Source of the DNA: Elsinoe ampelina
Taxonomy: Eukaryota
Length of the DNA stretch: 64,000 nt
Direction of reading: 5' to 3'
Assembly: GCA_010093995.1 (NCBI GenBank)
Contig: ML992504.1
Span: forward strand, 1,787,394-1,851,393
Part shown: positions 33,451-58,822 of the stretch, piece after piece
Position numbering within the stretch: position 1 is the stretch's first letter
Layout: every line of letters begins with the position of its first letter
Notes under the pieces: model-generated
Databases searched by the model: none
Seen by the model: the letters and a program-made list of their open reading frames with translations, nothing else
Told to the model about the DNA's origin: nothing
Translations under genes and position numbers: made by a program

Positions 33451-34492
33451 ACCTCACAAGACCTGATGGACCTAGTGAGAATCGATGCTCCATGGTCGTC
33501 GCCTTGCCCGAGTTCATGCGGCCGATATTGCGTGAGTCGTTCTGTGGCGATGCCGAACTGTGATGTGGAAGATCGATAGTCGTACAATTCAAGTTTCAGA
33601 TATTGTTGTGGCAAGTTATGCGACGTGGGTTCTCGCGCGTAAAGTGGTTGCAGTAAACAAGAGGTCAAAGGGATGGCTTGGCGTGTCCCGAGCTCGAGAT
33701 GCAGCCAAAACTGCCCCTCATAGGGAGCCTTATATGTGCCAAACCGCCAATTCAACCAACCTTTATTTATTTACACCTGCGAATTTGCTTAATATTTATA
33801 TCTTCTTAGATATTACTTACTATTATACTTACTAATGTACTTACTAATATTCTAGATAGTTATTATTAGCTATGCTATACCTATGTATTAATTTTAAGGT
33901 CTATTAGCCTTTAATCTAGCGCTAGATTATACTTAATAACCTTAATTAATCGATAGTTATTAACTACTTATAAACTGTCTTCTATATTAAGGTATCTCTA
34001 TAATCTCTATAGTAGTAGTTAAAGAATTAGAGTATTATAATAAGGCTACTAGCTACTAATTTACTAGAGTTATAAGCTTAGATTATATCGATATTTAGTA
34101 AGGCTATAGAAAAGGACAATCTAATACTAAGGATATTATATAATAAAGGCTAGCTATACCTTTTAAAGTATTAGCTTTAATACCTTTAGCTAGCTATAGG
34201 TCTCTATAAGTAGATAGATACTATAGATAAGAAAGAGATATAAGTATATATAAGAGAGGCTTTATAAGAGTTACTAGATAAGGGTATAAAGTACTTAGAA
34301 TATTATATACTAGCGAACGAGCTATAGAGAAGATATAATATAGTAGAAATATATAATATATTAATTAACTTATAGCTTAACTTATAGCTTATAACTTATA
34401 GTAATAGAGTAATATAGCTTAATTATAAGCTTAATCTAGAGAGTATTAGTAGTTATCTTTACGCTATTAATTACTACTATAGCGCTCTTATT

Positions 34493-35060
34493 ATACTAGA
34501 GCTAAATTATTACTAGTTACTTAATACCTATTATAAATTTAAGAGAGTTAGTATCTAAGTATATACTATAATAGATATATACTTATAGTATATCCTCTAG
34601 CTCTATATTAGTATTACTAGATATATAGAAAACTTAGTTACTACTTAATATTTCTATTATCTTAAGGCTATTAGTATTATACTATATAAGGTATAATTTA
34701 ATTAAGGTACTAAAATACTAATTATAGTAGATTTATACTACGCTATTACTAGATAAGTTTAACTAACTCCTATAGTCTTTATAGACTACTATTAGTATAG
34801 TACTAGTAAGATAAACTAGTAGATTAAGTTATAGTAGTTATAATTAGTAAAAGAGACTATAAATAACTAGCGTAACTACTTTACTAAGCTAGTAGCTAAG
34901 GGCGTATTTATAGGCGATAGCCTACTAGATTATATTACTTTACTTACTATCTATATACTAATTATTCGCTATAAACTATAAGAGTTTACTCTCTACTAGA
35001 ATAACTATAGAATCTATAAGTAGAAGAATTACTCTTATATTATTTCTAGCTAACTAGTCT
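34493..35060 (+). pseudogene. RIP-mutated integrase-core (DDE) transposase, catalytic region
   Basis: One frame without frameshifts. Reversing only C>T/G>A changes gives PGPN.CWSLD, GIQVYAAIDAYSRYILWLYIG, VRSDRGTET, YGTS..NQRIESWWSQL and EF...WNNHRIRKQ. Putative D/D/E codons at 34523, 34700 and 34826. True ORF ends not determined. Confidence 0.8.
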
Positions 35061-36739
35061 ATATATACTAGTAGCTAGATCTATATAAGGACAAGTAATA
35101 TAGTATATAAGTTAAACTATAAGTCCTTAGTAAGTTTCTTACTAAGGCTAATAAGTTTAGTATATAGCGTATATAGTAATTTATAACTCTAGATAGTACT
35201 TTCTATACTTTCTCTTTAAGTACTTATACTAACTTACTAAGGTAAATATTAAAGAATACTTACTAGCTAAAACACTCTAGTAGTATTATAAAGTTATTAT
35301 TTAATAGTTTAGAGTAATACCTACTAGTAGTAGTACTAATACTAAGAGTTATTAGCTTTATTAACTAGTATATCTTTATCTTTACTAGGCTACTTATATC
35401 TATATTACTCTTAGTAATATTAATCTAGAACTAGTCGAGTTAGATAAGCCTTATTAGACTAGAGTTATTAGGCTAGAGATTGTTATATTATTTAAGGTAC
35501 TAACTAGTAAGGAAGGTAATATAGATTTTTAATTATTAAAAAAAGTATAATTCTCTCTTCTTTCTTTACTTTTCTTCTTTCTTACTTATTCTTTATAGAT
35601 TTACTACTATACTTATAGCTAACTTATAGTAATATATTAGTAATAGATTAGACTCTATACTACTCTAAGTAGAGTATTTATTATAACTAAGTAATAGGCT
35701 AATATACCTTTTATAGTAGCTATAGTACTAGGAACTCTAATATACTAACTAGTAAAGTATTTATAAGGACTAGCTAGTAGAGAGAGTTATTAAATACTTT
35801 CTCTAGCTATTTAAGCTTACTATTACTAGCTATAAGCTTATCTATAAGTTAGTAGCAAGTATAGACTCTACTAGTATAGCTACTACTAATAACTACCTTT
35901 ATAGCTTTTACTTCTCTCTCTTCTACTACTATTTAATAGTGCTAGATCTATATAGCTACTAAACTACTTTAGGCTAATACTAGTACTTATATACTTTTAT
36001 TAAGAGGCTAATTAGTAGTATTAATACTACTAGTCGATCTATACAAATTCTATATCCTTATTAAAGCTTATATATAATTAGCTAGAGTAACTTATAGTAA
36101 GTATATATTAATCTAGACATTTAAAGTACCTAAGATATATAAAAAATAAAATAACTCTTTCTATAAGTAAGAGTTTAATACGTAGAGGAATAATAAGCTA
36201 TATAGTAAAGCCTTTATTATTTTTCTTTTAACTTATAGTAATAATTACTCTCTTTAATCTTAGATAATAGCCTTTAACTACTTTAATAGTGCCTTCCTCT
36301 ATACTAGCTAGAGCTCTACTATAGATACGCTATAAAGACTTACTAAAGCCTTCTTAGTAGTAGTATAAGATCTTAGTAGCCTTCTTATACTATTCGTAGC
36401 TAAATAAAAGAGAAAGAATAGTAATTATAGTAATACTACTTATGTAATTATAATCTATATCTAGTAGGTTAAAGGATATAAGAAGAGCTTAGTAAGTTAT
36501 ACTATAAGTTATACTTTAAGTACTATACTAAGTACTAGATAAATTAAGAAAGAGCTAGAGCTACTTAAGTCTATAAGTAGTTCTCGTAGTTAACTTACTA
36601 GTATAACTTATACTAACCTTATTTAGTAACTCTACTAAGATTAACTCTCTAAATTTACTAACCTAACTAGAGATAATAATAAGACTCTTTTTACTATTAA
36701 ATATTTCTCTCTAGCTATAGAGTTATTTAAGAATTTAGA

Positions 36740-36880
36740 GCTAGATAAGCTAGATAAGCTAGATAAGCTAGATAAGAGAGAGAAGAGAGAGAAGAGAGAG
36801 AAGAGAGAGAAGAGAGAGAAGAGAGAGAGAAAAGAAAAGAGAAAGAGAGAAAGAAAGAGAGAAAGAGAAAGAGAGTAAGA
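36740..36880 (+). repeat. 9-bp tandem repeats (GCTAGATAA)x4 then (GAGAGAGAA)x5, decaying into a purine tract
   Basis: Read directly from the sequence; translates LDK-LDK...REK-REK on +. Confidence 0.85.
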
Positions 36881-38334
36881 GATAGCTATACTAGTAATAC
36901 TAGAGAAGAGAGAGATATAATTAAGATAGAGAAAGAAGTAGAGAGTAGTTTAACTTTAGCTACTAAGTTAGATTATAAGCTAGATTATAAGTTAAACTAT
37001 AAGTTAGATTAATCTATATTAGTCTAACTTATAATAGTACTTATAGAGACTTATAGTTAAATTTATAGTATATAATAAGGTAAAAGTATATCTATTAAGT
37101 ATTATTTATAAGTATAAAAAGGTACTAAGGATTAAGGTAAGCTAAGCTACTTCTTAATTATAGCTAATATATTCTTTACTATATTATAGTTATTTTTAAA
37201 AGTTACTACTCTTACTACTAGCGCTATATTCTCTACTTCTAAAATAGTAACTTACTACTTACTTATAGCTAGACTTATAGCTAGATCTACTATAGATAGT
37301 CTAGTAGTAGTAGCGGTAGTAGTAGCGATAGTAGTAGTAGTAAGAGTAGTATTCTTTCTCTCTATCTCTTCTTTCTTCTTAATCTTCTTCTCTATATTAT
37401 AATAACTTTTATTATTCCTTTTATAGAAGATATAAGCCTTCTTCTTCTTCTTAAATACCTAGTAAGAGTAGCTATACTTAATATACTCTTTATATAGTTT
37501 ATAGGCTAGTACTTCTTCTATTATCTCTATAATATAGCTAGCTATATCTATATAATAAAGTAATTAATAAGTATTATATCTCTATAACGTACTATAGAGG
37601 TAAGCTAGCTTAGCCTTAAAAGTAATAACTCTAAAGAACTAAAAATTAAATAATATAGTAGTTATTAGGTAGTAGTATTCTCTATAAGTTATTAGTAAGT
37701 ACTCTATAAGTATAAATATCTAGCTAATCTTATACTATACTAGCCTTAAAAATCTGCCCTTAAAGAGCTACTAGATTATACTTATAATATTAAAGGTCAA
37801 AAAATTAACTAAGTATAGTATAGTACTTAGTAGAGATAAAAGGGAAAATATAGATAAGCTTAAGATTATAGTAAGCTATATAGTAATTTACTATACTATA
37901 AGTCTATATAGTAAGGACAATAGCGAGGAGGTATATAGGTATAATTTGCTATTAAACTTATTAGCCTTAAAGTCTAATTATAACCTAAACAACTATAATA
38001 ACTTATAGTAGTAGATAGTTAAATAAAATAATATTATAAGAATACTCTCTTAGAGGGCTTCTTAGAGCTCTTATTTACCTTAGAATGCTTTAAAAAACTT
38101 GTAAATACGAGGATTAATAGCGCTAGAGAGGTTATAAAAAAAGATGTTTAGTAGTGGTTGTTTATTTACAAAAGTCAAAAGTTTTGGCGGTTTGGCACGT
38201 ATAAGCTGCCGTCCCCTCAATCTTGTAGAGCCGCACCTTACTTGTGGCATCTCAAGATTCACTTTCGCGATTCCTCCAGTTCAAATATCTTTCCTCTCCC
38301 CACGACCTTCCATCGTGGTCGCTCGCCCCTCACC

Positions 38335-47234: not shown

Positions 47235-48661
47235 CTATCCCGAAACCAAAAACCAACCACCACCTACCGTCACTCCCACCAGAATGATCGTGATTATATA
47301 AGCACCTGCTTTATCACCCGTCCCTATCGTTTTCGGCGCGACTTTTTCGACACTGGTCTCCCTCCCAGTCCCAGCACTGGGATCACCCTCACTCGTCCCG
47401 CCCGTCTTGTTGCTTAAAGGACCCGGCGACGAGGTATGCAACAACGCCTGGAAAGTCTCGAGGGCACACATTTGCTGTCCAACACCCGTTGTCCCGTCCC
47501 ATCCGCTCTCGTACCATCTCGTGCCACATGTCGACCCTCCTTCGCCAACACAGCTTTGGGCGGCGCCTCGCGCAGATGCCTCCAAATATGGTCGGATGTA
47601 TGGCGTCATGAAGGGCGCGACTTGCATTGTAACGGCCATCCAGCGAGAGAGGTACCCCTTGAAGCTGAGCTGGTCGACCTCGCAGTTACTACCAGGTTCG
47701 CAGGCAACCTCGTAAAGGATATTCCTGGCGTCCCCGGCAAAGAATATCTCGCTGCTTCTATTCCACAGCCCAAGTGTCCTGGCCTGCCACTGCTCGTTCA
47801 TGTCCGTATTTTGCGTGGCATTCCACATGGTAGCTGCTCCGTACATGTAGATGCCCGCATTGTAAGTCCACTGTGTTGTGTCTTGCTTGGTACAATTGAG
47901 GTTATCGTCGGCGCCGTCGTAGACGTTCCATCCTTGCAGCAGCCCAATGTCAATCGTCCAATCCCAAGTCTTGACGGCCCAGTCTGCGTACGTTTGGTTG
48001 CCCGTGTATGCGTAAAGGCGAGCAGCAATGTTGAAGAACAGACCGTTGGAGATGGAGTTTTTGTAGTTGTAGCCTTTATTCGCCCAGAAGATCTGCCATT
48101 TCAATCCCCCAGCGCAGCGTTCTGTCTCCCACCTCGAGGCTTGCCTATTGAAGACTGCTTGTGCCAGGGCCAACCACTGTGGTTTGTCCGCGGGTGGGTT
48201 TGGATACTTGACTTCGGCCGCGCGCATGGCTGCAATGCCCCAGAATGCTTGGTCATCATTACCGAGTGACGCAGTCTGATTGACTGGCTGATAGTCGATA
48301 TCCTCTCCGACCTGGAAGAGCATTGCCTCGGTAGTGATCTTGTTATACGAGTCGTCACCCGTGTAGTGCCAGTAATCGATGAGAGAGCCAAACATGGCGC
48401 CAGCCTCCCACCAGTAGTATGGATCACCAAGCAGACCCGGAATCAGTCCGGTCCTATTGCCAGGATAGAACGAGACCATCTTGCAAGCCACAGTGGAGGC
48501 GGCATCCTTGATCGACTCTGCAGATTGTCAGTAGAAGCGCAATCGGCAAGACTGCTAGGCTTACGGGCGTCGTTGATGTCCAGTTGAATGGCCTGTACTG
48601 CGTGACCGATGGCGAGACCTGCCACGAGCCATCTGGTCGTTGACTTGGATTGTGTTGCCAT
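47235..48661 (-). CDS. GH76 alpha-1,6-mannanase/transglycosidase, DCW1/DFG5-like, GPI-anchored
   Basis: Signal peptide, intron 48564-48518, YYWWEAGA, LGNDDQ catalytic pair, CAGGLKWQI, SFKGYLSRW, C-terminal DKAGA plus hydrophobic tail. Confidence 0.95.
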
Positions 48662-49694: not shown

Positions 49695-50774
49695 CTACGT
49701 CTCACAAGTCCCATTCACCAATTGCCCGAACCCAGCCTCGGTCAATGTATCCGTCAAATTGAACCTCGTCGAAATCGTCGCCAACCTCAACGGCGCAGTA
49801 AAGTACGGAATCTGCACGCCTCCGAACCTGCTCTCGTCCCCCCTGATGCTCAACGGTATCACACCACACCTATACGCTGGCTGTGACAGGATCCCCGCAA
49901 TCGCAGACGTGTTGGCAGTCGCATACAGCGGATACGAGTTATTCCCCGGCGTCAGCGTCAGAGCTGGCAAGGTGGAGTTGCCAATCAGCGTCTCACCCAC
50001 GAAGAGATTGAGCGTGACGTCGCCAAAGTCAGCAGTGCTGATGGACGGGTTGGGAATGGTGACGTTGCCGAACGAGTTGGCGCCAAAGGGCAGGTCGTCC
50101 CCCAGACGGAAGCGGGTGATCTCGAGGCCTTGCAGGGCGTTGAGGCCGGTGAGGTTGATGGTCTGGTTGTAATTGACTGTGATGCGGGGGAGGCCGCCTT
50201 GCTTTAGTCCGCCGCTGCCTCGAAGGTTGACGAGGAAGTTCTTGGTTGCGAGGAGGGTAGTGGTATAGCGGGTGAAGGCTGCGAGGTCGGTGATTTGGAT
50301 GCTTTGCTGAACGCGGGCTGTGGTGCCGTTTTCGGCCTTGATGGCGGGGATGGTGACGGAGACGAAGGGAGTGGTTTGACCTTCGAGGTAGAAGGAGCCG
50401 TTGAAAGAGTCGAGGTCGGGATGGAGGTTGGAGTCGGAGAGCAAGACGCTGTCGAGGGTCAAGTCGGCCGAGTCTGGTGCTGGATTGCGAATGATCTGAG
50501 CTGTTGGGACGAGCTGGGCCTTGTTGATGCCGCTCTGAGCCAATCGTGGGTAGCCAACAAATATGCTGGAGAAGAAATCAGTTGGTGAGTTGCGAGCATT
50601 GAGTGATGCATAGACTTACATGGGCAGGACAACAGCCAGAATGACAATGATCAAGGCGATGACATAGATCCACCAGAACCTGGCGCAGTGTCGCTTGATG
50701 CCACCCTTTCTCTTCGGAGCAGGGCCATTGACAGTTTCGTGGTGCTTCGAGTCAAATTCCTTTGATGAAGACAT
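49695..50774 (-). CDS. Type-II membrane protein with beta-rich lumenal domain (DUF3712-like)
   Basis: KRHCARFWWIY plus a TM helix, intron 50619-50566, GLNALQG, IPNPS...GDVTL, LTLTPGNN. Confidence 0.75.
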
Positions 50775-51980: not shown

Positions 51981-53246
51981 TCATTTGGGTTTGTCCTTTG
52001 CCTTTTCCTTCTCCTTGTCTTCCTTGTCCTTGAGCTCTTTCACGGCGATCCGCATGTTCTTTTCCTCCTGCGAAAGGGTCTCAAAGTGTGCTCGGTCGTT
52101 GTCCCACTTGTCCACGCATTCGCGGTTCCAGTTGCAGTCTTCCACTTGGCCAAATACGGGGTGCTGTGATTGTTAGTCTCGTCCATTTCCGTGAGATCTC
52201 CGGTAGGCCTACCTTGTACCGTGGGTGAGCATCCGGCCAATGCGAAGCGTGGTAATGATGTCGGACCAATGAGTACTTTGTATCGTGGTTGCCAGAATCA
52301 GAGTGTCCCTGTCCAGCAGCGAACGCTTCAACCGGTAATACGAGCACACCTCCGACCAGCTTCGACTCTGACAGCCCATGGAATGGGTCCCAATTGATAT
52401 CTTTGCCTGTCCGTGCCGACATGTCGTCCAAAATGGCTTTTGTGAATGCGCTAGGTCCTGTGCCTGAAATGACTTGATCAAAGTCGAGCTTGATATCTGC
52501 GATGCCGACCTTCTGCTCGTCCGCAACGGTCTTGAGCCATGCGATGATGTTCTCGACTAGTTTGAGCATGACCGGTAATCGCGGTTTGCACATCTGTTGC
52601 CCGTCAGCTTCGCCCGGTACATCTGGTCAGTAATACCTACAAAAGTCCACTGACAGAATGATTGACACTTTGTCCCAAGAATCGTGTGATTCTTGAACTC
52701 TGGCTGATCGATTTCCACCCCAATGACCATATCCACGTCCCGCTCTTGATACCTCTCTGGCAAGAACCTGCCTATGGGTCGAAGTGCTTCCACGTCAATG
52801 TCCGTGTAGACTCCGCCTTCGACGTACATGACCAGGTACCGCAAGATATCCGCCTTGATGATGCGGGCGTTCAGCTCCCGGTAGGTGTAGACAATGTCCA
52901 ATCGGTTGAGGCCATCGGGGCCGAACTCGCGCTCGACATAGGCAAGGTCATTCTTGTCTGTGAGGACCTCGTATCTGTACTCCGGGTTCTTGCCCACCCA
53001 GCTCCTCGCTCGATTAAGGTCAGTCTCCTCGAACCCGAGAGGATCGATCTTCCAAATTTGCCAGATTTTGCGAGGGAACCGCGGGTCCTTTGCTACCAGG
53101 TAGCTCGCTGGTATGTCCTTGTATGGGCTCCAGAGGAATATGAGGATCAAGCAAAAGACGGTCAATGCAGGCAGTATCCGGCGGACTTGGGTAGGCATTG
53201 CGAATGCCGGTGGCCTAGAGACGTAGTCCTTGTATTCGAGTTTCAT
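51981..53246 (-). CDS. GT32 alpha-mannosyltransferase (OCH1/HOC1-like)
   Basis: N-terminal TM, PRKIWQ, KADILRYL, GGVYTDIDV (DXD), FCQWTFMCKP, TGPSAFT, HHYHAS. Introns 52640-52594 and 52212-52164. Start could also be at MPTQVRR. Confidence 0.92.
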
Positions 53247-54514
53247 GGTTGTAATGACGGTGGAGATGTTCAGCTGGGGTAACGACCGATAGGGGGCGAG
53301 GTAGGGCCGCAAACGGGCAAAAATAGTTGGAAAGCAAGACAGCAAATAATAAAAATATGGAAAACGACGTATACTTGCAGGGCTATTGTTCCGTGCCCGG
53401 GAGGGGGGTTAGCAGCTTGGATCAACCAGATGATTGACAACGTCCCAAGCTCGGACAAACGAGGATGCGTTCCAGTGTGCATCCTTCTAGATGCATGTCC
53501 TTGTCTCGCATTGACTTGACGAAATTTCATTTCAGAAGCCCCGCGACCCAGGAAGTTGAGATGGCGCCACCCGCGACATCTGCCACAGAACTAGCACACC
53601 CTCCCCCACGGGCGAAATCGTATTCTGGCAGCCATGGTTTGGCGCCTCCAATTCTCGCAGCGACGCTAGCGTTTGCAGGATTATCGCAGCGGTGTCACTT
53701 TACGTTCGATATACGTGCAAGAGGGTCAGTGCGGCCAAGGTTGGGCTCAATGCGAGGGTTGAAAGTCAATAGCGCGTCGACAAGAGACCTGCCCTCGACG
53801 GACTGAGGTCTGAAAAACAAAGGTCCGCCGCTCTCGTAAAATCCGGTTTGACCAATCGGCTGTGTGAAATTACAGATGCGCACAGACGAGGCGATTCCTT
53901 GCAGATGGGTCGAAGGCCCGAAGGGACACGAAAGAAGTCTGAACTGGACGCTAGCGGGCCACGTCGATCTCAGGCCGTCTCCCCCGAACCTCGTTTGCTA
54001 TTGTACATCAGGCTTGTGCAGGTATTGCTTTGCTTTTCAATTGCGTGCCGGGAGTGGTCAGTGGCGACGATCAGAGCAACGGCCGCGGCCAGATTAGTCT
54101 GGAGTGCGACCGAGACGACGACTGGAAGCGACATAGGGTTGCGGTGGGCACCTACTGGCCGACCACGATTGCTAATGAAACACGACAAAGTCTAATCTCG
54201 CCGCCCCCGTCAAGACCAGTTTGGACCCTCGCCACGTCCCCTTGAGGCTTGGTCAGGAAAAGGAGGCTCCAAGGATTTGTCGCACGTCGATCTACTCCCC
54301 GTTTCGTGTGCCGGCACTCCTCATCGTACTATTCTAACTAAGTTAATGGTGGAGGAATAATAGACGAATGGCAACGGCTTGTAAATACTGAGTGCCTCGG
54401 CGATTGTCCATGTCACTTTTGATGACATGTGTTGAAGGCAGAATTTCCGGACGTGCTACATTGCACATGACATGACTTTGAAGTCTGCGCACTACAGACA
54501 CACACACCGTTGAC

Positions 54515-55990
54515 ATGGCGGACACAGCTGAGGATGGCGGTTTGCTAGAGAAGAACGAGGATGAGCTTCTACCACAACGCAGCCGACTGGCAGGACTCAG
54601 ATCATCAGCAGCATTCCAAACACTCCTGTGGGTAGTACAGGCTATACGGCCATCATTTCTCAACAACGTGTCGAGAGGTGGTCGACTGCGAAAGACAGCA
54701 TATCTCGATGGAATCAGAGGGTTTGCTGCTTTTCTGGTATACTGGCATCATCACCTACTCTGGAGCCATGAAGCTATGCATGCAGAGTCGACACTCCAGT
54801 CGGCTTTTGGATATAATCATGAACATTTGTTCGCTGCACTACCAATAGTCCGCACATTTTTCACAGGAGGACATCTGGCAGTCGCCATCTTCTTCATACT
54901 CTCAGGCTATGTACTCTCCACCAAACCACTGTCCCTTCTAGACTCTGGAGATCACCTTGCCTTGGGCGACAATCTGGCATCTGCCCTGTTCAGACGATGG
55001 TTCAGACTGTGGATCCCAGTCATTGTCGTCAGCTTTGGCATCGTCTCCTTCTACTACTGGACTGGGATATTTGCCAACTTTATTCCAGAAGGCTCCTACA
55101 GAGCCGAAGTGTGGAAGTGGTACAACGAAATCAAGATTTACAGCTTCATATTCGGTCAGCCTAAAATTCCATGGCTGTCCTACCACCCACACTCATGGAC
55201 AATCCCTGTGGAGATCCGGGGGTCAGTCGTTGTATACTGCAGTGTTCTGGCCTTGTCGAGAACAACACGCAAAGCCAGACTCTGGTGCGAAGCGGGCTTG
55301 ATGTTCTACTTTATGTATATCGTGGACGGAGCTTATTACGCCATGTTCACGGCCGGCCTCTTCCTCTGCGAGATCGACATGTACTCGGTCACACAGGCAC
55401 TGCCAGCATGGATGACCGCGCTGAAGCCCTTCGAAACATCTATCTGGCACATTATGTTCTTCGTTGGTCTTCTTCTAGGCGGCGTGCCTTCGACCACCAA
55501 CGACTTGACCTACCTAAAGGATTCACCAGGCTGGCACCTACTCGCATGGTTCAAGCCGCAGGCAGTGTTCGACTTTAAGTGGTTCTTCCTCTTCTGGGCT
55601 GCCATTTGCGTCATCTCAGCTGTGCCTCGTATACCATGGCTGAAACGCTTCTTCGAGACCAGGTTCTGCCTCTACCTCGGTCGTATCTCTTACATGCTAT
55701 ACCTGCTTCACGGTCCCATCTTATGGACTCTGGGCGATAGACTCTACGCTGCCACTGGATGGTCACGAGAGGCACACGCCCTGCATCTTCCAGGATGGAC
55801 AAACAGATTTCCAGTACCAAAGTGGGGGCCAGTAGGACTGGAGCTGGCATTCCTGGTACCTAATCTGATACTCTTGCCCCTCACTCTCTGGATGGCAGAG
55901 TTGGGGACGAGTCTGATAGACGGGCCAGCCATCCGTTTCGGATCCTGGCTGTACGGAAAGACACGCCCCTCGGACGAGTACTTGACATGA
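54515..55990 (+). CDS. Acyltransferase family 3 (OafA-like membrane O-acyltransferase)
   Basis: YLDGIRGFAAFLV, AVAIFFILSGYVL, RRWFRL, WTIPVE, YLGRISYMLYLLHG; many TM segments. Confidence 0.92.
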   Translation: MADTAEDGGLLEKNEDELLPQRSRLAGLRSSAAFQTLLWVVQAIRPSFLNNVSRGGRLRKTAYLDGIRGFAAFLVYWHHHLLWSHEAMHAESTLQSAFGYNHEHLFAALPIVRTFFTGGHLAVAIFFILSGYVLSTKPLSLLDSGDHLALGDNLASALFRRWFRLWIPVIVVSFGIVSFYYWTGIFANFIPEGSYRAEVWKWYNEIKIYSFIFGQPKIPWLSYHPHSWTIPVEIRGSVVVYCSVLALSRTTRKARLWCEAGLMFYFMYIVDGAYYAMFTAGLFLCEIDMYSVTQALPAWMTALKPFETSIWHIMFFVGLLLGGVPSTTNDLTYLKDSPGWHLLAWFKPQAVFDFKWFFLFWAAICVISAVPRIPWLKRFFETRFCLYLGRISYMLYLLHGPILWTLGDRLYAATGWSREAHALHLPGWTNRFPVPKWGPVGLELAFLVPNLILLPLTLWMAELGTSLIDGPAIRFGSWLYGKTRPSDEYLT

Positions 55991-56444
55991 GATGATGCAA
56001 CCAGGGGGCATGAGGGGGCGGGGTACGCCATTCGTGATGACCATGTAATTCTACTACATTAGCCAATGACCTCATTTCCCCATATCTAGTTAGCTGTCAA
56101 TGTAACGGGGATCAACTAATGAAACGCGACAAGGCACGCTATGCACAAGTGTCAGACCATCCGCAAGCCCGTGTGACAAGAAGCCAAAGCATGGTTCCAT
56201 CAAAGCTTGATTCTCCAGCCGAGGCGTCTATTAATCAATGCGCGGGAGGAGAACCACGTCCGTGATGTTTGGACATTTTCCTTCTCGTGATCGTCCCGTT
56301 CTCGGTCCAGCACTTTCACATGTCTCACTCGATCGGGAGCACTTGTCCGACATCGAAACCTCGCGCCGTCTTGGGGCATTGAACAAATTTCAATGATATG
56401 GTGACACTGACCGTCACGATACCTGATACAATGCGCAATCGACC

Positions 56445-57884
56445 ATGCTGGTGACCACGGCCAGAGGAGGCTTGTCTGTCCTGTTCCTCCTGCTCATACC
56501 CGTCGTCTGGCTAGGAGTCTACCACTTCCCAGCACTGCTGACTTTCGATTCCGCTTCATTACCGCAGAAGCATGACCAGGTCATACCAGTCAAGGAGGAG
56601 TCGCAGGACGTCAAGGAGCATGTCGTTGCGCCGGAGAAAGGCCATGTCTCCTGGGTCGAGCCAGCTCCGGTAACAGACTCTGAGAGTCGATTGCCCGTAG
56701 AATCAATCCCATGGCCACCAGCCGAGCAACCTGCGGAAACTTCAACACAGCCAGGATACCATGTCATCAAATCAAAGACGTCTCTGGATGGCAGATACTT
56801 TGACATTGACTTCAAACACCCGGCCATCAATCCCAACATTATCCCTCATCCGACCGAGCCTGACACATTCATCATCGTTGCCCAAAAGCACAAGTACGGA
56901 TCGACCGGAATCTTCTTCTTCGTGGAGCTGGTATGCAACGCCGTCTTCCAGAACTACAAACTCGTATGCACCGAGCCCGCCTCCATCCTACCCATATCAG
57001 CCACCAGCAGCGGCAACTGCGAAGGCAAGCTGGACTTCTTCGCCCTCAGCGTCGGGCCCCACGACGCACGAGTCTTCTGGGGTCCCGACCGACCCTACGT
57101 CCTCTTCGGCTCCAACTCAATGCACAACTGCTTCGGCCAATGGCTCCAAGACTTCCGCATGCTCACCATCTGGCACGAACTCACCGACCTCCGCGCCCCC
57201 TACCGCCTCGCCACCGACATCGCCAAACCCCCACCCTACCAACCCATCGAAAAGAACTGGTTCATCTTCTGGGACCTGGACAGCAACATCTACGCCCACT
57301 ACGACATCTTCCCGCACCGCTCCTTCGCCCGCATCTCCCCCGACGGTTCCGCCAGCGAGGACCTCGCCCCGCGCTCCCGCGAAGCAGACGACATGTGCTT
57401 CGCGACCCACGGACCCAAGCCGACCCCCGCCTCCCCCGACGCAGGCGAAGGGGAAGAATCCATCCACCAAGCGACAAACTCCCTCTCCATCACGCTCTGC
57501 CGCCGCGCCGACCCGTCCTGTGAACCCTCGCCCACAAACACATTCATCCTCACCGTCTTCCACCTCAAGCGCCACTTGAACCTACACAGTGTTTACGAAC
57601 CCTACGTCCTCTTGTTCTCGGCCGTGGCGCCTTTTAGAACCTTCGCGGTAGGTTCCAAGCCGCTGTGGGTCCATGGACGGAAAAAGGCAGGGGAGGAAGG
57701 GACCGTGAGTGATGGCCAGAGCGAGATGATGTATATTACTTCTGTCAATTGGAAGGCGAATGGGAGTAGGTACCAGGGGTATCTGGATGATGTGGTCATG
57801 GTGGGGTTTGGGGTCGAGGATAGGAGGGCCGCAGGGATTGATGTGCTGGCCGAGGATTTGTTGGGGGGGTTGGCTTATTGTTGA
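56445..57884 (+). CDS. Uncharacterised type-II membrane protein, predicted beta-propeller (GT91/GH130-like motifs)
   Basis: Single N-terminal TM, Pro-rich stem, then NPNIIPHP, GPHDARVF, EKNWFIFW and GYLDDVVMVGFGVED. The gene is solid; the fold is inferred. Confidence 0.8.
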   Translation: MLVTTARGGLSVLFLLLIPVVWLGVYHFPALLTFDSASLPQKHDQVIPVKEESQDVKEHVVAPEKGHVSWVEPAPVTDSESRLPVESIPWPPAEQPAETSTQPGYHVIKSKTSLDGRYFDIDFKHPAINPNIIPHPTEPDTFIIVAQKHKYGSTGIFFFVELVCNAVFQNYKLVCTEPASILPISATSSGNCEGKLDFFALSVGPHDARVFWGPDRPYVLFGSNSMHNCFGQWLQDFRMLTIWHELTDLRAPYRLATDIAKPPPYQPIEKNWFIFWDLDSNIYAHYDIFPHRSFARISPDGSASEDLAPRSREADDMCFATHGPKPTPASPDAGEGEESIHQATNSLSITLCRRADPSCEPSPTNTFILTVFHLKRHLNLHSVYEPYVLLFSAVAPFRTFAVGSKPLWVHGRKKAGEEGTVSDGQSEMMYITSVNWKANGSRYQGYLDDVVMVGFGVEDRRAAGIDVLAEDLLGGLAYC

Positions 57885-58822
57885 ATGCTGGGCTGGAGTA
57901 AGGTCTCATTTCGGATGGGTGTATATATTCTTGAGAGCGGAGATGTCGATCGTATATACTCCCAGGCAGACTCGATTAGCCTTTCATCCTCCGTATCTCC
58001 CTATGCGGACCCCTGGGACTTTGTGTCTCCCTGTCATCGTGTTGAGGGGTGTACATGTACCAACACTTTCTCTGTCTGCCCATGATGCTAACCGCTATGA
58101 TGGGACCTTCCGGTGGACCAGCGCTGTGAGATTCATTCCGCTGGTGCAGGGAAGCATGCATACCACTCTTTCTTCGTGTGAGCTACGGCACAACCTGCGA
58201 AAAAGGTTGTGAGGTGATCATTCAGCTCTGTGAAAGTCAGCCATCTGGTAATCCCCGTGCGCTTGATCATCGAGTCGTGATTCATCGCCTCGGTAGCTAA
58301 AAACTGCAACGTACCCCTGACCGTCATTTCCTCCGCCGCCTGAAGCGAATAGTGATCCCTGAACTCGTGCACCAGGATCAGCTCTTTGGGTAGTATCGTG
58401 CCTGCGTCGGGTCAACGACTCGCCTCAACGTGGATCAACAGAGAGTGCGTACCTTTTGGGACTTTATAGACTAACACGTCCGGACCAGTGAACGTAGCAA
58501 GCACTCTCCTCTGCGCAGGCGAGTCTGACCGCATTGAGGCGCCATTGGGGACTGTTTGCGTTGCATGTCAGAGTACTGCAGTAATGACGATCATCAAGAG
58601 CGATGCCGTACATTCATAAGTCTTTGGGTCAAGTGCTTTGGGCTTGACCATGCCGGAAGTGGTGAGTAAATCGAAAGGTCCGCGTGGTCGTAGGGGGCCT
58701 GGGTGGGCTCGAAGTCGAATGCTAGGACCTTTGTTTGTGCGGAAGAGAGTCTTGGGAAAGGTTGCGAAAGAGGCGAGGAAGCGATTGTGGTTCATTGCTT
58801 GCACATTTATAGATCGTATATA

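Follow-up and report, generated by a model that had tools for sequence, protein, structure and literature searches.

What do three neighboring genes of Elsinoe ampelina, which encode a GT32 glycosyltransferase, an acyltransferase-3 (AT3) protein and a membrane-anchored beta-propeller protein, make together? The genes lie within the window analyzed here, a stretch of 64,000 nucleotides (nt) of contig ML992504.1 (GenBank assembly GCA_010093995.1; positions 1,787,394 to 1,851,393, forward strand), and positions given below are those of the window. An initial annotation had proposed that the trio builds and O-acylates a mannan or glycolipid surface polymer. We assign a probability of about 0.5 to the reading that the encoded enzymes work together in the Golgi, as a conserved module of three, to complete a glycan containing mannose; protein-linked or wall glycans would most likely carry it as a side chain or cap.

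The trio is a conserved gene unit, retained in many distantly related molds and black yeasts, and its grouping goes beyond chance. In 19 of the 22 other assemblies compared (Dothideomycetes and Eurotiomycetes), the identifiers of the three genes are neighbors, so the linkage of orthologues on which the initial annotation depended mostly holds; among metagenome loci having 10 kb upstream, order and orientation were identical in five of eight. This arrangement is retained over two classes at 43-49% amino acid (aa) identity between propeller proteins, whereas other neighbors are not retained: the GH76 gene, the P450 gene and two downstream open reading frames (ORFs) beside the trio were found in 0 of 26 loci, many of which are too short to reach them. 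At loci without AT3 beside the propeller gene, glycosyl genes were still nearby.

The described layout, a divergent GT32/AT3 pair approximately 1.27 kb apart followed in tandem by a membrane protein, was borne out: all three genes are intact, and the third gene begins 454 nt past the AT3 stop codon (Table 1). The GT32 reading frame spans 389 aa over three exons with no internal stops, and an annotated Elsinoe protein is 100% identical to residues 17-389; in general, the closest named proteins come from Elsinoe (Dothideomycetes). Transcript evidence came from contigs of runs presumed to be RNA, which we treated as processed transcripts because of their GT..AG joints; sequencing depth was not used to rank genes. 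Spliced contigs joined the GT32 exons as modeled at both introns (4/4 runs, two studies). Contigs from runs X1, X2 and X3 lay over all three genes, and run X5 left the third gene uncovered. Between GT32 and AT3, contigs extended to ~53347 on the GT32 side and from 53982 on the AT3 side. Comparison of promoter words found 13 shared seven-mers versus 6.2 in shuffles (3 of 100 shuffles reached 13) and zero eight-mers; this search gave no clear conserved motif, and we do not take it as evidence. All three proteins look membrane-bound, in keeping with the secretory-pathway location proposed for them, although the location itself we infer from the membrane anchors.

In the GT32 protein, PF04488 scored 48.7 bits against a cut-off of 23, the two aspartates of the DxD motif (D149 and D151) are at least 95% conserved among homologues, and crude hydropathy identified the hydrophobic segment at residues 24-42 as a type II anchor. 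The nearest solved structure is Och1 (9n3s), with an E value of 9e-26 across three aligned stretches when the 98% identical protein P0241 served as the query. The genome holds eight PF04488 matches, this GT32 among them. The eight linked orthologues compared are 64-98% identical to this GT32, against 29-33% for three further Och1-type genes of the genome, and by sequence comparison it is placed in a clade separate from the genome’s other Och1-type genes.

The AT3 protein matched PF01757 at 75.2 bits (cut-off, 31), and all four motifs of the family, as defined in PMC9558356 and PMC12423673, are present: DxxRx10H (D65/R68/H79), VxxFFxLSG(F/W/Y) as FFxLSGY (V123-Y132), RxxR (R161/R164) and SxxxY (S392/Y396). 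These motifs are at least 95% conserved across 121 sequences. Crude hydropathy at a threshold of 1.6 gave four hydrophobic segments, and the family fold has ten helices. A Pfam scan identified no SGNH domain in this protein, which has three distant paralogous loci in the genome.

The third protein had no Pfam match in the same scan. It has a single N-terminal hydrophobic helix, at residues 10-28 by hydropathy and 6-27 in the structure model, and an N-terminal anchor is found in 110 of 114 close and 56 of 64 broad homologues. The predicted model and the fold search agree on a five-bladed beta-propeller, as the initial annotation’s label had it. The folds closest to the model were those of GH130 mannoside phosphorylases and GT108 mannosyltransferases, the solved ones being phosphorylases and one hydrolase, and no BMT structure appeared among the matches; structural alignments with characterized enzymes gave 10-13% identity. 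In a language-model search, the nearest named Atlas clusters were yeast beta-mannosyltransferases (BMT/GT91), at 0.93-0.95. The comparison with BMTs comprised these Atlas features and a bacterial bridge family with BMT scores below cut-off. The propeller gene has one match in its own genome, and its family, which has several invariant cysteines, ranges over Pezizomycotina and Lipomycetaceae. When 64 members and 36 distant matches were scanned against Pfam and PHROGs, nothing relevant was returned. Searches of the genome itself with PF12141 (BMT) and PF04041 (GH130) also returned nothing, but the PF12141 control gave no match either, making that blank uninformative. Because the BMT and GH130 Pfam models fail and the acceptor residues of beta-1,2 enzymes are absent, the propeller protein is placed, on sequence, in a separate, unnamed family within a GH130/GT108/GT91-like group. 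Distant profile matches that had been expected to be BMTs did not prove so: of ten looked up, nine were Lipomycetaceae proteins without a name, and the remaining one was also nameless.

We mapped active-site residues by a two-step profile alignment via the bacterial bridge family, and then onto the GH130/GT108 residue roles listed in Supplementary Table 3 of PMC12814180. A search pattern built from two motifs retrieved the bridge proteins (98 loci, of which 41 had both motifs in frame); among the 28 scanned, 19 scored on GH130 models and 10 on BMT models, for the most part without reaching the cut-off. An alignment of 27 bridge proteins matched the fungal propeller family with 97.2% probability (E value 3e-11; 279 columns, including segments beyond the selecting motifs), a match inflated by the choice of the bridge family on two of the motifs. 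Probability was 91.4% with the narrow alignment, and the bridge alignment matched the beta-1,2-mannobiose phosphorylase 7fip with an E value of 8e-11. The mapping predicts D207 as the proton donor, N129, K270, Y430 and D459 as donor-mannose residues, and N271 and Y384 as phosphate residues; all are invariant in the 114 close homologues, except Y430 (112/114). The Arg and Glu of the beta-1,2 acceptor pair are replaced by Q147 (103/114) and H206 (114/114), respectively, and the corresponding beta-1,4 pair is Arg/Tyr. The propeller protein is therefore best read as working in the manner of the GH130/GT108/GT91 group though it lies outside those families. The bridge family itself (L031-L107; mainly Chlamydiota contigs, and frequent in environmental Chlamydiae) retains the Arg and Glu that are typical of beta-1,2 enzymes.

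Under the proposed scheme, the Och1-type GT32 would add alpha-mannose from GDP-mannose with retention in the Golgi lumen, and the propeller protein, as a putative inverting transferase using Asp207 as in GH130/GT108, would add beta-mannose from GDP-mannose. Its linkage is probably other than beta-1,2-to-mannose because both acceptor residues are replaced. The AT3 protein would take an acyl group, in the simplest case acetyl, from acyl-CoA in the cytosol and deliver it through the membrane to the newly added sugar. Of the O-acylated mannan idea, a mannose-containing, O-acylated product remains the best reading; the third gene, however, is no anonymous propeller but appears to encode a GH130/GT108/GT91-like enzyme, and the product would therefore probably carry beta- as well as alpha-mannose. 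More tentatively, the third gene could be the founder of an unclassified family of Golgi beta-mannosyltransferases whose members have a propeller fold, show a new acceptor specificity, occur widely in filamentous ascomycetes and have multiplied in Lipomycetaceae; together with the GT32 and AT3, its enzyme would make an O-acylated alpha/beta-mannoside not yet tied to genes.

Several results weigh against a mannose-finishing Golgi module. The residue mapping is indirect, and its bridge was selected by motif. PF12141 matched 0 of 64 propeller-family members at E values up to 10, as did PF04041 (0/64), and a sequence search of the PDB with the single propeller protein and both profiles yielded short WD40/P450 chance matches only and no GH130/GT108 structure. 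Linkage is lost or not evident in 3 of the 22 assemblies (Myriangium, Neophaeotheca and the Elsinoe batatas identifiers) and at several loci, and of the 12 loci with 1.7 kb or more upstream, five lack AT3 beside the propeller gene. If these losses meant that the genes are old neighbors with no common pathway, an explanation for which the linkage counts, taken as raw counts, also leave room, order and orientation would hardly be expected to persist over two classes while other neighbors do not; all three are, moreover, glycan-acting membrane enzymes, and we regard mere neighborhood as highly improbable. Also counting against the module, at the Arg/His/Glu switch (phosphorylase/transferase/hydrolase) the candidates are His285, Asp287 and Arg292, and Asp287, kept in 111 of 114 close homologues, would mimic a hydrolase base; it sits 17 residues past Lys270, near the base Glu227 of BT3780. 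At the position of the phosphate His, 105 of 114 close homologues carry Gln, the window protein and 40 of the 64 broad members carry His, and BT3780 likewise lacks that His. Together with the solved folds nearest to it, these features would suit a Golgi beta-mannosidase or phosphorylase trimming or remodeling a glycan made and acylated by the GT32 and AT3 proteins. Position 287, however, holds Asp or Glu in just 50 of the 64 broad members and in this differs from Asp207 and Asp459; Lys270, Asn271, Tyr384, Lys375 and Arg292 make up a basic, phosphate-type pocket; the nearest named Atlas clusters are transferases; and BMTs presumably share the type II anchor. Trimming or remodeling thus seems unlikely.

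The carrier may also be questioned. The same three activities could act on a lipid or small molecule, giving either a glycosylinositolphosphoceramide with an acylated head group or an acylated mannoside that is secreted. The Aspergillus fumigatus GT32 OchC (Och1-3), on which there is also a gene-cluster paper, acts on the glycosphingolipid Af3c as a mannosyltransferase (PMC9769593), and fungal AT3s sit in the small-molecule clusters for fusicoccin and zaragozic acid (PMC12423673), a further point against a Golgi glycan; a DUF3712 membrane protein accompanies the trio at three loci. Yet in the examined loci the trio has no conserved neighbor that is a synthase, polyketide synthase, nonribosomal peptide synthetase or transporter, and the other Och1-type paralogues in the genome are merely 29-33% identical, so this GT32 is not established as OchC; a lipid or small-molecule carrier is rather unlikely. 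Another linked pathway would have the GT32 or the propeller protein use a donor other than mannose, which might fit the low structural-alignment identity of the propeller family to characterized enzymes, its differing acceptor residues and a UDP-glucose dehydrogenase adjoining one locus. Retention of the donor-side mannose residues N129, K270, Y430 and D459 and the match of GT32 to Och1 over three stretches make this very unlikely. A module that finishes a mannose-containing glycan on a protein-linked or wall carrier remains the reading we prefer.

Table 1. Positions of the trio and of a candidate fourth gene in the window
Feature	Position	Strand	Remark
GT32 (Och1-type) exon 1: start codon, type II anchor aa 24-42, DxD D149-x-D151	52641..53246	-	Contig-supported joint
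GT32 intron 1, 47 nt, GT..AG	52594..52640	-	Absent from contigs, 4/4 runs
GT32 exon 2	52213..52593	-	
GT32 intron 2, 49 nt, GT..AG	52164..52212	-	Absent from contigs, 4/4 runs
GT32 exon 3, including stop codon	51981..52163	-	
GT32/AT3 intergenic region, 1268 nt, ATG to ATG: 5' untranslated regions and probable shared promoter	53247..54514		
AT3 (AT3/TmAT), 491 aa, intronless	54515..55990	+	
Third gene: type II membrane protein, 479 aa, luminal five-bladed beta-propeller ~aa 105-479, predicted catalytic Asp207	56445..57884	+	
DUF3712 membrane protein, candidate fourth member	49695..50774	-	Same side and strand in 3/26 metagenome loci, two lineages

Within the DUF3712 gene, contigs of study P2 are three bases short at 50468-50471 and show alternative joints around the intron at 50565-50635, each a strain difference or an assembly effect. 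The GH76 gene (47235-48527, minus strand), which encodes a C-terminal hydrophobic tail, lies 1.2 kb from DUF3712. A small intron-bearing gene at 58133-58795 (minus strand) is convergent with the propeller gene; two of its pieces match PF18648 (Tse2 ADP-ribosyltransferase-like) above cut-off, and spliced contigs cover it, with no sign of cluster membership. Positions 34001-38000 form an AT-rich island (GC content ~0.25 versus 0.52), possibly a mutated repeat.

Among other loci, one (L020:1-11239) carries UDP-glucose dehydrogenase, GT32 and propeller genes with no AT3, a possible glucuronic-acid variant. A Fringe-like/DUF604 glycosyltransferase gene lies a few kb from the propeller gene in one related group (L010, L016, L017 and L023); in L016 and L023, GT32 and AT3 are absent within 10 kb of it. 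Elsewhere in the E. ampelina genome (G000:C8:817000-822100; L140 and L141), two divergent PF04488 glycosyltransferase genes lie on either side of a gene of the chromate-transporter family and may belong to a further small cluster for a glycan or glycolipid; when the pair was considered as a candidate Af3c-type cluster, no deacetylase was found among ORFs of at least 200 aa. Lipomycetaceae (Lipomyces, Myxozyma and Dipodascopsis) have a divergent propeller branch with several paralogues per species (P0471-P0490). These yeasts produce slime rich in mannose and uronic acid, and the family is a good place to seek the product.

Neither the trio nor the propeller family was described in the literature searched, which covered few subscription journals and left supplements outside, so that expression tables or CAZy updates could mention them. 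The view that this gene combination has no characterized pathway was upheld in that literature, and neither the combination nor the enzyme family appears to have been described; genes for glycans in clusters, and mannosyltransferases with a propeller fold, are already known. Beta-mannose has been reported in wall glycans of filamentous fungi, e.g., Fusarium (PMC8323920), and the only characterized fungal beta-mannosyltransferases in the literature searched were yeast BMTs. The propeller family may be a missing beta-mannose-adding enzyme of filamentous fungi, and the cluster suggests enzyme partners for it. If true, this would provide these fungi with a source of both beta-mannose and glycan O-acylation, give an example of a fungal AT3 whose target is a secretory glycan, and extend the few propeller-fold glycosyltransferases by a branch. 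An orphan Och1-type clade would gain a function as well; the functions of och1-2 and och1-4 have been called unclear (PMC9769593). Such a glycan could have been overlooked, because O-acyl groups are base-labile and are lost during alkaline wall extraction.

Each protein resembles a known type. With all four motifs and no SGNH domain match, the AT3 resembles stand-alone O-acyltransferases (Oac/OacB/IcaC type; fungal PaAT-1-like), but the literature searched yielded no example of a fungal AT3 that acts on a Golgi glycan. The GT32 shares with the Och1 alpha-1,6-mannosyltransferase a type II anchor, the DxD motif and the stretches aligning with 9n3s, and differs in belonging to its own clade. The propeller family is nearest to GT91/BMT (PF12141) by language-model features, is bridged to it by bacterial proteins, and has the single N-terminal anchor and luminal catalytic domain that we take to be BMT features; it differs in having no PF12141 match, in its range and in being clustered with GT32 and AT3. 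From the GH130/GT108 enzymes, including the Leishmania mannosyltransferase/phosphorylases, it keeps the five-bladed propeller, the proton-donor Asp and the donor-site residues, but it is membrane-anchored, has invariant cysteines and a replaced acceptor pair, and lacks a PF04041 match. As a system, the trio had been likened to the galactosaminogalactan cluster, and that likeness reduces to the concept of clustered genes for glycan synthesis and modification: the galactosaminogalactan cluster presumably has no enzyme family in common with the trio and deacetylates instead of acylating. We know of no AT3 or propeller protein in the Aspergillus Af3c cluster; it is nonetheless, by analogy, the closer precedent, a fungal cluster in which an Och1-type GT32 (OchC) builds a specific glycan.
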